From Pseudomonadota bacterium (GTDB lineage: Bacteria; Pseudomonadota; Alphaproteobacteria; Caulobacterales; Parvularculaceae), in the NCBI GenBank assembly GCA_039187035.1, contig JBCCZS010000001.1, forward strand, positions 2,284-66,283: DNA of 64,000 nt, read 5' to 3'. The position numbers were made by a program, and so were the translations under genes. Of the stretch, positions 14,644-15,867 are shown piece after piece (positions within the stretch are counted from its first letter, which is position 1; each line of letters starts with the position of its first letter). The notes below the pieces were generated by a model that was not told the origin of the DNA, ran no database searches, and saw only the letters and a program-made list of their open reading frames with translations.

Positions 14644-15867
14644 ATGATGGAAAGACGCGTTCTGCTGACGTCTGCTGCTGCGACCGTTGCGGCGGCCCTT
14701 ACGGCGACCATGCAACCGCTGCCTGTGCGGGCGCAATCGCCGCTTCGTCCCAAGGGGTATTTGAGAACGAATTGGAGCAAGGACCCGTTCGCCTTCGGCT
14801 CCTACTCGTACACCGCCAAGGGATCGAGCATGCGCGATCGGCGCCGGCTCGCCGCGCCGATAGATGATAAGGTCTACTTCGCCGGCGAAGCTTGCCACCC
14901 GGACTACAACTCAACCGTACACGCAGCTTATGAGAGCGGCGTTATGGCCGGCGAGGCCGTCGAAAAGACGGGCAAAGAACGCATCGCCGTCATCGGCGCC
15001 GGCATGAGCGGCCTTGCGGCCGCCAGCCGCTTGGCCGGCGCCGGCCGATCGGTCACCGTATTTGAGGCGCGCGACCGCATTGGCGGGCGCGTTTGGACCA
15101 ATGCCGACCTCGGGACGCCGCTCGATCTCGGCGCGAGTTGGATTCATGGCGTCAGGAAAAACCCGTTAACCGCGCTTTCCGATCGCCTTGACGTCGCGCG
15201 CGTCGCAACCGACGACAGTTCCGTCATTCGCGGGAACGGCGGATCACGGCTCAGATCGTCACCGTCCTGGATGCGGGGGATTGAAACCCAACTTAGTGCC
15301 GGTACGGAGCTATCCACGCTCAATCTGCTCGCCTACGCGCTGCAGTCGGACTATGGCGGCGAGGACGTCATTTTTCCCGGAGGGTATTCGGCGCTTTTCA
15401 AAGGCCTCGCCGGACCTTACGTCGTCAAGACGAATAGCGCCGTCACATCCGTGTCCATCGACGACGCGGGGGTCACGTTGGCGGTCGGGGACGAGGCCGC
15501 GGCGTTCGACGCGGTTGTCGTCACGCTGCCGTTGGGCGTCCTGAAGCGCGAAACCGTCCGCTTCATCCCACCGTTGCCGGAGGAGAAGCGGACTGCGATC
15601 GAGCGGCTGGGCTTCGGCCTGTTGGACAAACTCTACCTGCAATTCGAAACGGTCTTCTGGGATAAGAGCCCGACTTGGATCGAACTGCCTGAAACGCGTT
15701 TGCCGCGCGGTCAGTTCAATCAATGGCTCAACATTTATAAATATACAGGAGCGCCGATCATCGCGGCGTTCAACGGCGCCTCTCCGGCTCGCGACCTGGC
15801 GACGCTTGATGATGACGCGCTCTTATCGCGCGCACTGACCGCCCTCCAGCGCGCCTACCCAAGCTAG
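14644..15867 (+). CDS. Flavin-containing amine oxidase, motifs in circularly permuted order, with export signal
   Basis: Residues about 41-106 carry the normally C-terminal motif ([14 protein letters not shown]...[23 protein letters not shown]). Residues 114-150 carry the normally N-terminal FAD fold ([37 protein letters not shown]). AGAGG RBS. Confidence 0.85.
   Translation: [407 protein letters not shown]

Follow-up and report, generated by a model that had tools for sequence, protein, structure and literature searches.

The locus at 14644..15867 (+) raises the question of whether it encodes a flavin amine oxidase whose chain is naturally circularly permuted. It lies within a window of 64,000 nucleotides, the whole stretch of DNA analysed, which is part of contig JBCCZS010000001.1. 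The gene is a complete open reading frame (ORF) of 407 amino acids followed by a stop codon. NCBI holds an identical 407-residue protein (P0001) under the name 'MAG: FAD-dependent oxidoreductase [Pseudomonadota bacterium]' (MAG, metagenome-assembled genome; FAD, flavin adenine dinucleotide). Against the whole protein, the Pfam profile PF01593 scores 233.7 bits (E 6.8e-69; gathering score 19.8), with the match divided into three stretches. Both the ORF and the order of its motifs are exactly as described in a sequence-only reading made earlier on this DNA, and the sequence matches the one quoted there. We conclude that the gene very probably encodes a complete FAD-dependent amine oxidase of the polyamine-oxidase/LSD1 branch of PF01593, and that this enzyme is a natural circular permutant.

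The permuted order is directly visible in the profile coordinates when the protein is scanned in three pieces. Positions 371-441 of the 443 positions of PF01593 fall on residues 35-105 (E 9e-17), positions 1-70 on residues 121-190 (E 2.5e-22) and positions 192-366 on residues 237-406 (E 4e-29), which is the swap of coordinates that the earlier reading had predicted. In the collinear order of the family, the GxGxxG motif is N-terminal and the W..DP..GSYS..FAGE segment is C-terminal, an order that the window protein does not follow. The swapped coordinates thus put the end of the chain at profile position 366 and its start, behind the leader, at position 371, in agreement with the earlier proposal that the chain stops where the relocated segment would begin. 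The swapped order is the sole departure from PF01593 and concerns the connectivity of the chain, leaving its content intact. The alignment with LSD1 (2hko) is swapped as well, with query residues 35-101 on chain residues 571-649, 107-185 on 105-181, and 216-403 on 366-562. Judged from these alignments, the swapped order relative to LSD1 and Pfam is far beyond chance.

Along the chain, the leader (MMERRVLL...) is followed by a YFAGEA-containing stretch at residues 43-99 and by the motif at residues 114-123, and the protein ends with ...LQRAYPS. The relocated segment (residues 35-106; 14746..14961, +) corresponds to the C-terminal part of normal enzymes, which completes the FAD domain. It carries W44, GSYSY 52-56, FAGE 79-82 and a final helix (residues 92-107), and aligns to residues 407-473 of spermine oxidase. 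The join of the ancestral termini (residues 107-112; 14962..14979, +) is composed of the last residue of the old C-terminal helix and a five-residue linker, KTGKE, which leads into the Rossmann strand β1. The body (residues 113-407; 14980..15864, +) accounts for PF01593 positions 1-70 and 192-366 and for LSD1 residues 105-181 and 366-562. It contains the Rossmann β-α-β unit with GxGxxG at 118-123, E141, R149, the GASWIHG motif at 163-169 and the substrate domain, whose last helix (residues 390-404) now ends the chain.

In a formal permutation test, three canonical relatives were aligned to the single window protein and to its mature form doubled head-to-tail. On the single copy, each canonical relative gives two non-collinear pieces (185 and 86 bits for Polyangium). 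On the doubled copy, Polyangium gives one high-scoring segment pair of 437 columns (263 bits, E 3e-84) that crosses the artificial join, and all three relatives align collinearly with the whole enzyme covered. The gapless passage through the join in the doubled copy is partly due to the chosen leader cleavage site and should not be over-read. Collinearity on a doubled copy together with conservation across a clade is the operational definition of a natural circular permutant, and both are found here. As in natural circular permutants of other families, the predicted fold is the same and the order is conserved across the clade.

The swapped order is retained by homologues in other genomes, as the sequence-only reading had asked to be checked. 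All of the 120 best homologues have the order C-terminal segment, Rossmann, middle, at 50-67% identity, with lengths of about 400-410 residues and mostly 90-100% coverage. Some permuted homologues are located on contigs of 1-6 Mb from named Hoeflea, Nitratireductor, Ruegeria and Maritalea, and isolate genomes are represented among the Alphaproteobacteria. When the three pieces are searched with tblastn against raw DNA, the permuted order is found in 18 loci, 16 of them alphaproteobacterial (Kordiimonas, Maritalea, Henriciella, Hellea, Marivita, Neomegalonema, Parasphingorhabdus and others) and two outside this class, in one member of the Acidimicrobiia and one of the Microbacteriaceae, at 34-37% identity. 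The same search gives the canonical order in loci of Planctomycetota, Polyangium and Symploca. Because tblastn on raw DNA yields the same order at 18 independent loci, systematic gene-calling errors are very unlikely.

The junction was also searched on its own, with residues 30-180 alone compared against 1.84 billion cluster representatives, of which 252 match at E <= 1e-30. Among the best 150 of these 252 matches, the permuted order is shown by 48 full-length proteins and 13 fragments and the canonical order by 85 proteins (in 83 all three segments were detected, in two the middle segment gave no match), and the remaining four are long tandem fusions. A second search seeded with the Acidimicrobiia protein adds 31 permuted actinobacterial proteins and 87 canonical ones, the latter mostly from Chloroflexota. 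Overall, 200 proteins with the permuted order (C-terminal segment, N-terminal Rossmann part, middle; C-N-M) and 173 with the canonical order (N-M-C) were fetched. In the 200 permuted proteins, the median offset of the chain end from the position of window residue 407 is 0 (interquartile range, IQR, -1 to +1), and the join has a median of 0 extra residues (IQR 0-1). The actinobacterial permuted chains end in ...VLRTIYG, and their mature parts start with ...VPDPxGxLxTRW; in the canonical relatives, the stretch spanning the cut point runs continuously. Comparing the actinobacterial ends with the canonical ones thus places the cut at one site in the two phyla, with a difference of no more than one or two residues. 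The permutation is both ancient and inherited, and it marks a subfamily in Alphaproteobacteria and Actinomycetota that coexists with normal-order sisters in other phyla.

These data bear on two less favourable explanations of the locus. The window derives from a MAG, and MAG contigs can be chimeric, so that a collapsed tandem duplication or a chimeric join might have produced a false permuted ORF. The chance of such an assembly artefact is practically negligible, since the same order recurs in 200 independently assembled proteins, in isolate genomes, on 1-6 Mb contigs and in the 18 raw-DNA loci; this cross-genome conservation already refutes it. In addition, the GC content is even across the gene, tblastn finds no second copy of the gene in the window, and there are no long direct repeats around it, leaving the DNA without trace of recent rearrangement. 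The window thus holds no normal-order paralogue or repeat that could explain the locus as a chimera. The architecture is also what a freshly truncated tandem pair would show, that is, the tail of one copy fused to a truncated second copy on its way to pseudogenisation. It is nevertheless extremely improbable that the gene is such a decaying remnant: the FAD-binding and catalytic residues, the chain end and the linker length are kept at 50-67% identity and down to 34-37% identity in Actinomycetota, the leader is retained, and the model is confidently folded. Because motifs, chain end and linker are kept across such divergent members, the protein appears to have been under long-term purifying selection as a working protein. 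The earlier claim of a true circular permutation, as opposed to a fragment or an artefact, is upheld by the Pfam swap, the doubled-copy alignment and the 200 C-N-M proteins.

We predicted the structure of the window protein by AlphaFold2 run on a 50-sequence family alignment. The model, a check that the earlier reading had proposed, is intact, with a mean predicted local distance difference test (pLDDT) score of 90.2 and a predicted template modelling score (pTM) of 0.87, and only residues 1-25 fall below 50. The relocated segment (pLDDT 85-97) and the join (pLDDT 97-98) are both confidently modelled. The first predicted elements are two strands (38-41 and 54-56), helix 63-70, strand 77-79 and helix 92-107. 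KTGKE is followed by the Rossmann strand 113-117, helix 121-132 and strand 136-140. A model of a canonical control, the Anaerolineae protein P0293 (pLDDT 90.4), has as its five closing elements a strand at 401-404, a short one near 418, a helix at 426-433, a strand at 440-442 and a helix at 455-471, preceded by helix 377-392. The first five elements of the window model are the last five of P0293 at a constant offset of 363, and the predicted secondary-structure order is a pure circular shift of that of the canonical relative.

The two-domain fold of polyamine oxidase (PAO) and monoamine oxidase (MAO) is recognised in the window model by AlphaFold2 and Foldseek. In sequential Foldseek comparisons with LSD2, LSD1 and maize PAO, the permuted model reaches a query TM score (TMq) of about 0.65 (E ~4e-20, probability 1.0), whereas the canonical control reaches a TMq of 0.85 with a root-mean-square deviation of 1.9 Å (E ~1e-46) against the same LSD1, LSD2 and PAO entries. 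For these predicted models, the TMq shortfall is about the expected cost of losing the 75-residue out-of-order segment. No chain in the PDB matches the junction collinearly by sequence, and the fold matches include no permuted topology. As the join has only five residues and AlphaFold2 modelled the monomer alone, residues 35-106 might instead pack on a second chain, giving an obligate domain-swapped dimer in place of a permuted monomer. This arrangement in trans is very unlikely: AlphaFold2 puts the segment in cis, with a pLDDT of 85-98 over segment and linker together, and the confidently modelled short linker suggests that the canonical final helix ends near the start of β1.

Among 50 family members, ten residues (G118, G120, G123, E141, R149, E82, W44, H93, H168 and K329) show no variation, and Y54 differs in only one. 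The dinucleotide-binding motifs of PF01593 are all present, namely GxGxxG, the acidic residue ending β2, GGR and FAGE. The Lys329 codon (15628..15630, +) aligns with the lysine of LSD1 'GNLNK', so that K329 corresponds to Lys661 of LSD1, and Y54 corresponds to Tyr761. We take the position of LSD1 Lys661 and maize PAO K300 to be the conserved active-site lysine, and that of LSD1 Tyr761 to be the aromatic residue over the flavin. Since Y54 belongs to the relocated piece and K329 to the body, the active site would be built from both sides of the new termini. Moreover, GASWIHG of the window protein aligns with GATWIHG of spermine oxidase.

The N terminus carries a leader of the twin-arginine translocation (Tat) type (residues 1-30; 14644..14733, +), with R4 and R5, a hydrophobic stretch and an AxA-type site, probably cleaved after VRA. 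Both arginines are present in all of the 50 family members compared. An RRx-hydrophobic motif is found in 157 of 183 permuted leaders (86%) and in 110 of 146 canonical relatives (75%), many of the latter with a lipobox cysteine. From these leaders, the subfamily as a whole, permuted and canonical, looks Tat-exported. Because the canonical relatives carry Tat-type leaders too, the permutation is not the origin of export.

Comparison with characterised enzymes places the window protein near the polyamine and spermine oxidases. Human spermine oxidase SMOX (7oxl), murine PAOX (5lae), maize PAO (1b37) and yeast Fms1 belong to the same Pfam family and have the same active-site lysine and FAD-binding motifs. 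SMOX is the best PDB match to the junction piece (E 7.5e-24), and its GA(S/T)WIHG motif is in common with the window protein; by sequence, the PAO/SMOX subgroup thus appears to hold the nearest characterised relatives. These enzymes differ in that they have the canonical order and none is Tat-exported, and the window protein is without about 65 residues of their helical insert. LSD1/KDM1A and LSD2/KDM1B provide the best full-length sequence matches (E ~1e-44) and, at the Foldseek values given above, the best fold matches. They differ in being eukaryotic nuclear proteins of canonical order with SWIRM and Tower insertions. The canonical Tat-exported sisters from Polyangium, Planctomycetota and Symploca (loci L020, L019 and L021) and the Anaerolineae P0293 are 32-37% identical to the window protein along the full length when the permutation is taken into account. 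Their motifs are the same, and the Polyangium protein shares one identical stretch of 12 residues. They differ in their N-M-C order, in which the loop cut in the permuted subfamily is continuous.

The window protein is about 45-70 residues shorter than the canonical relatives (451-478 residues), a difference due not to the permutation but to another event, a deletion within the substrate domain's helical insert. This deletion of about 65 residues lies at residues ~180-235 (window ~15180-15350) and gives 68 gap columns against canonical proteins. The insert is kept in the canonical relatives and in the actinobacterial permuted proteins (L017, L018 and L020 were compared, with about 74 extra codons in L017). 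In the alphaproteobacterial permuted clade, the loss of the insert adds to the permutation a further, independent change of structure, which may make the substrate tunnel narrower or more open. The earlier statement that the protein has the length of one complete enzyme is therefore correct approximately, with the qualification that this clade carries the deletion.

How the permutation arose can be approached from its distribution. Duplication, fusion and truncation form the standard route to circular permutants. Such a route is plausible here; retention of the leader would need an in-frame deletion in the first copy, loss of the leader of the second copy and a stop before the last segment of the second copy. 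No bacterial intermediate was found among the retrieved proteins. The assignment of the locus to duplication and truncation in the sequence-only reading exceeds the evidence and represents a textbook default, as the retrieved tandem fusions with an identified source are insect gene models. In these fusions, P0157, P0238 and P0245 (928-971 residues) are double and P0130 (1449 residues) is apparently triple, with amine-oxidase units arranged head-to-tail. Each copy aligns as its own unit in P0130, P0157 and P0238, and a GxGxxG motif is present per copy in all four. P0157 is a gene model of Hypothenemus hampei and P0130 one of Chelonus insularis, flagged 'LOW QUALITY PROTEIN'. Either genuine tandem fusions or the merging of tandem paralogues may lie behind these four. 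As ancestors of the permuted proteins, such N-M-C-N-M-C fusions were rejected, because those of identified source are insect models and the fusions lie at a distance of ~2.0 from the permuted clade, against 1.1-1.4.

A neighbour-joining tree built from 149 sequences and 344 columns of the part that is collinear in both orders (Rossmann to middle) has bootstrap values near zero, and its permuted sequences are scattered in nine clans plus singletons, interleaved with canonical ones. Distances to the window clade are smaller for the permuted proteins from outside Alphaproteobacteria than for canonical proteins (medians 1.21 versus 1.30; Mann-Whitney p 3.6e-6), with overlapping ranges; this comparison of sequences mildly favours relatedness of the permuted proteins. 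That the break and join points coincide speaks for one ancient event, although constraint from the structure could lead to the same site twice. It is distinctly improbable that the topology itself was selected, either by arising repeatedly at the same loop in Alphaproteobacteria and Actinomycetota, or because making the FAD-closing segment first aids folding or cofactor capture of a Tat substrate. The folding-order version rests on the need of a Tat substrate to be fully folded and flavinylated before export. By their leader motifs, both architectures, permuted and canonical, appear to be Tat-exported.

We propose the following picture of the enzyme. After the Tat-type leader, the chain starts with the about 70 residues that normally close the FAD domain C-terminally. 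KTGKE ties the old C-terminal helix directly to β1, the FAD and substrate domains come next, and the chain stops once the last substrate-domain helix is complete, at the very point at which a normal enzyme would continue into the segment that is relocated here. The fold and active site are expected to be those of the normal enzyme, with the catalytic residues Y54 and K329 contributed from the two sides. FAD would be bound in the cytoplasm, the folded protein would be exported by Tat, and a polyamine-like amine would be oxidised in the periplasm. A periplasmic FAD enzyme acting on a polyamine-like amine is suggested because the best relatives are spermine oxidase, PAOX, maize PAO, Fms1 and LSD1/LSD2. 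No new chemistry is implied.

With the same topology, the enzyme could also be a dehydrogenase of the periplasm, handing electrons on to cytochrome c or to some other acceptor, with a substrate that need not be a polyamine. Periplasmic flavin 'oxidases' with acceptors other than O2 are known, and NicA2, a nicotine-degrading, Tat-exported member of the family, is a periplasmic dehydrogenase and an analogue. Cytochrome c has come up in the discussion of another Tat-exported member of the superfamily, from an alphaproteobacterium (PMC5053998). The apparent periplasmic export of the window protein fits this reading, and it is only similarity at the level of the family that speaks for a polyamine substrate. 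Such a dehydrogenase is possible but doubtful, because the top matches by sequence, spermine oxidase, PAOX and maize PAO, are genuine oxidases and have GA(S/T)WIHG in common with the window protein, and because no cytochrome c gene lies beside the gene in the six homologue loci for which neighbours were listed. The neighbours in these six loci also differ among themselves.

We retain the reading as a complete, permuted amine oxidase, against which several points weigh. The gene neighbourhood is not conserved and holds no partner genes pointing to a pathway; the substrate class is deduced from relatives. The structural equivalence is a predicted one, drawn from the AlphaFold model and the secondary-structure order. 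The neighbour-joining tree, with its support near zero, does not gather the permuted proteins into one supported clade. Finally, the Pfam profile TAT_signal (PF10518) gives no match to the whole protein at E <= 1, while it does match the neighbouring M24 peptidase; short leader profiles often miss true signals.

Current annotation does not reveal the subfamily, because domain annotation gives two separate Amino_oxidase matches and the names are generic ('FAD-dependent oxidoreductase', 'flavin monoamine oxidase family protein', 'monoamine oxidase'). No specific experimental names occur among the retrieved entries of the permuted subfamily and its canonical bacterial sisters. None of the curated NCBIfam models attains its cut-off for the window protein, the best being HpnE with 68 bits against a cut-off of 283. 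Full-text searches on circular permutation in amine, polyamine and monoamine oxidases or in FAD-binding/Rossmann proteins, made in literature with few subscription journals, returned no description of a permuted flavin amine oxidase. The literature, NCBIfam and solved-structure searches agree with the statement in the sequence-only reading that no permuted member had been described. The topological variant is real, ancient and widespread and apparently undescribed, on a fold that is itself well known.

The MAO/PAO/LSD1 fold is a much-studied flavoenzyme scaffold (drug targets, biosensors and biocatalysis) and, as far as we found, has been treated as having one fixed chain order. The natural cut at the crossover between substrate domain and FAD domain, together with the five-residue join, indicates that the fold tolerates reconnection. 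The cut marks a specific site for moving the termini, which would be useful for permuted or split sensors based on MAO, LSD1 or polyamine oxidase. In addition, the coexistence of normal-order sisters at similar divergence makes the subfamily a test case for the rise and fixation of circular permutations. The finding opens no long-standing question and has a moderate bearing on protein evolution and on the engineering of flavoenzymes.

The gene's neighbours in the window are a divergent response regulator of the OmpR type with a histidine kinase, and a MipA-family outer-membrane protein, an arrangement common only to the window and Kordiimonas. The response regulator (13787-14632, -) contains Response_reg and Trans_reg_C domains. 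Between the oxidase and regulator genes lies a perfect 38-bp palindrome, TGGAGactatgTGGAGgcgcgcCTCCAcatagtCTCCA (14566..14603), which ends 40 nt upstream of the ATG. Its repeats have an 11-bp period per arm, and it occurs only once in the window. The Kordiimonas locus (L003, 4920-4957) has a palindrome at the same place, with the four TGGAG/CTCCA pentamers kept and the 6-nt spacers changed. The period fits an OmpR/PhoB-type operator, making the palindrome a putative operator for the divergent response regulator, and its conservation suggests that the gene is controlled by the adjacent two-component system. The response-regulator ORF as listed starts at a TTG 11 nt from the oxidase ATG and overlaps the palindrome. 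The real start is probably an internal methionine (MQDTTKRPHDD..., ~14512), and with this start the divergent promoter region would measure about 130 nt.

Neighbours of the permuted gene differ in other genomes. In Hoeflea (L001) and Nitratireductor (L026), it is a few genes from amtB-amtB-glnK and beside a FAD_binding_3 monooxygenase. A gene for a pyridoxal phosphate-dependent decarboxylase, an amine-forming enzyme, is immediately downstream of it in an Acidimicrobiales locus (L025). The amtB/glnK and decarboxylase neighbours are weak hints, confined to their lineages, of a role in nitrogen or amine metabolism. The region around the gene in the window is rich in genes for envelope nutrient acquisition, including two TonB-dependent receptors at 8339-10750 and 21474-23879. 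Two M24 proteins also belong to this set, a Tat-signal M24 peptidase/creatinase-like protein at 10946-12181 (-) and a second one at 19948-21228. An ORF of 832 residues (17170-19668, -) has no Pfam match and contains a long acidic low-complexity middle with PETG repeats, followed by a C-terminal VDCSGFVSRAW that presumably resembles the catalytic-cysteine motif of NlpC/P60 peptidases.

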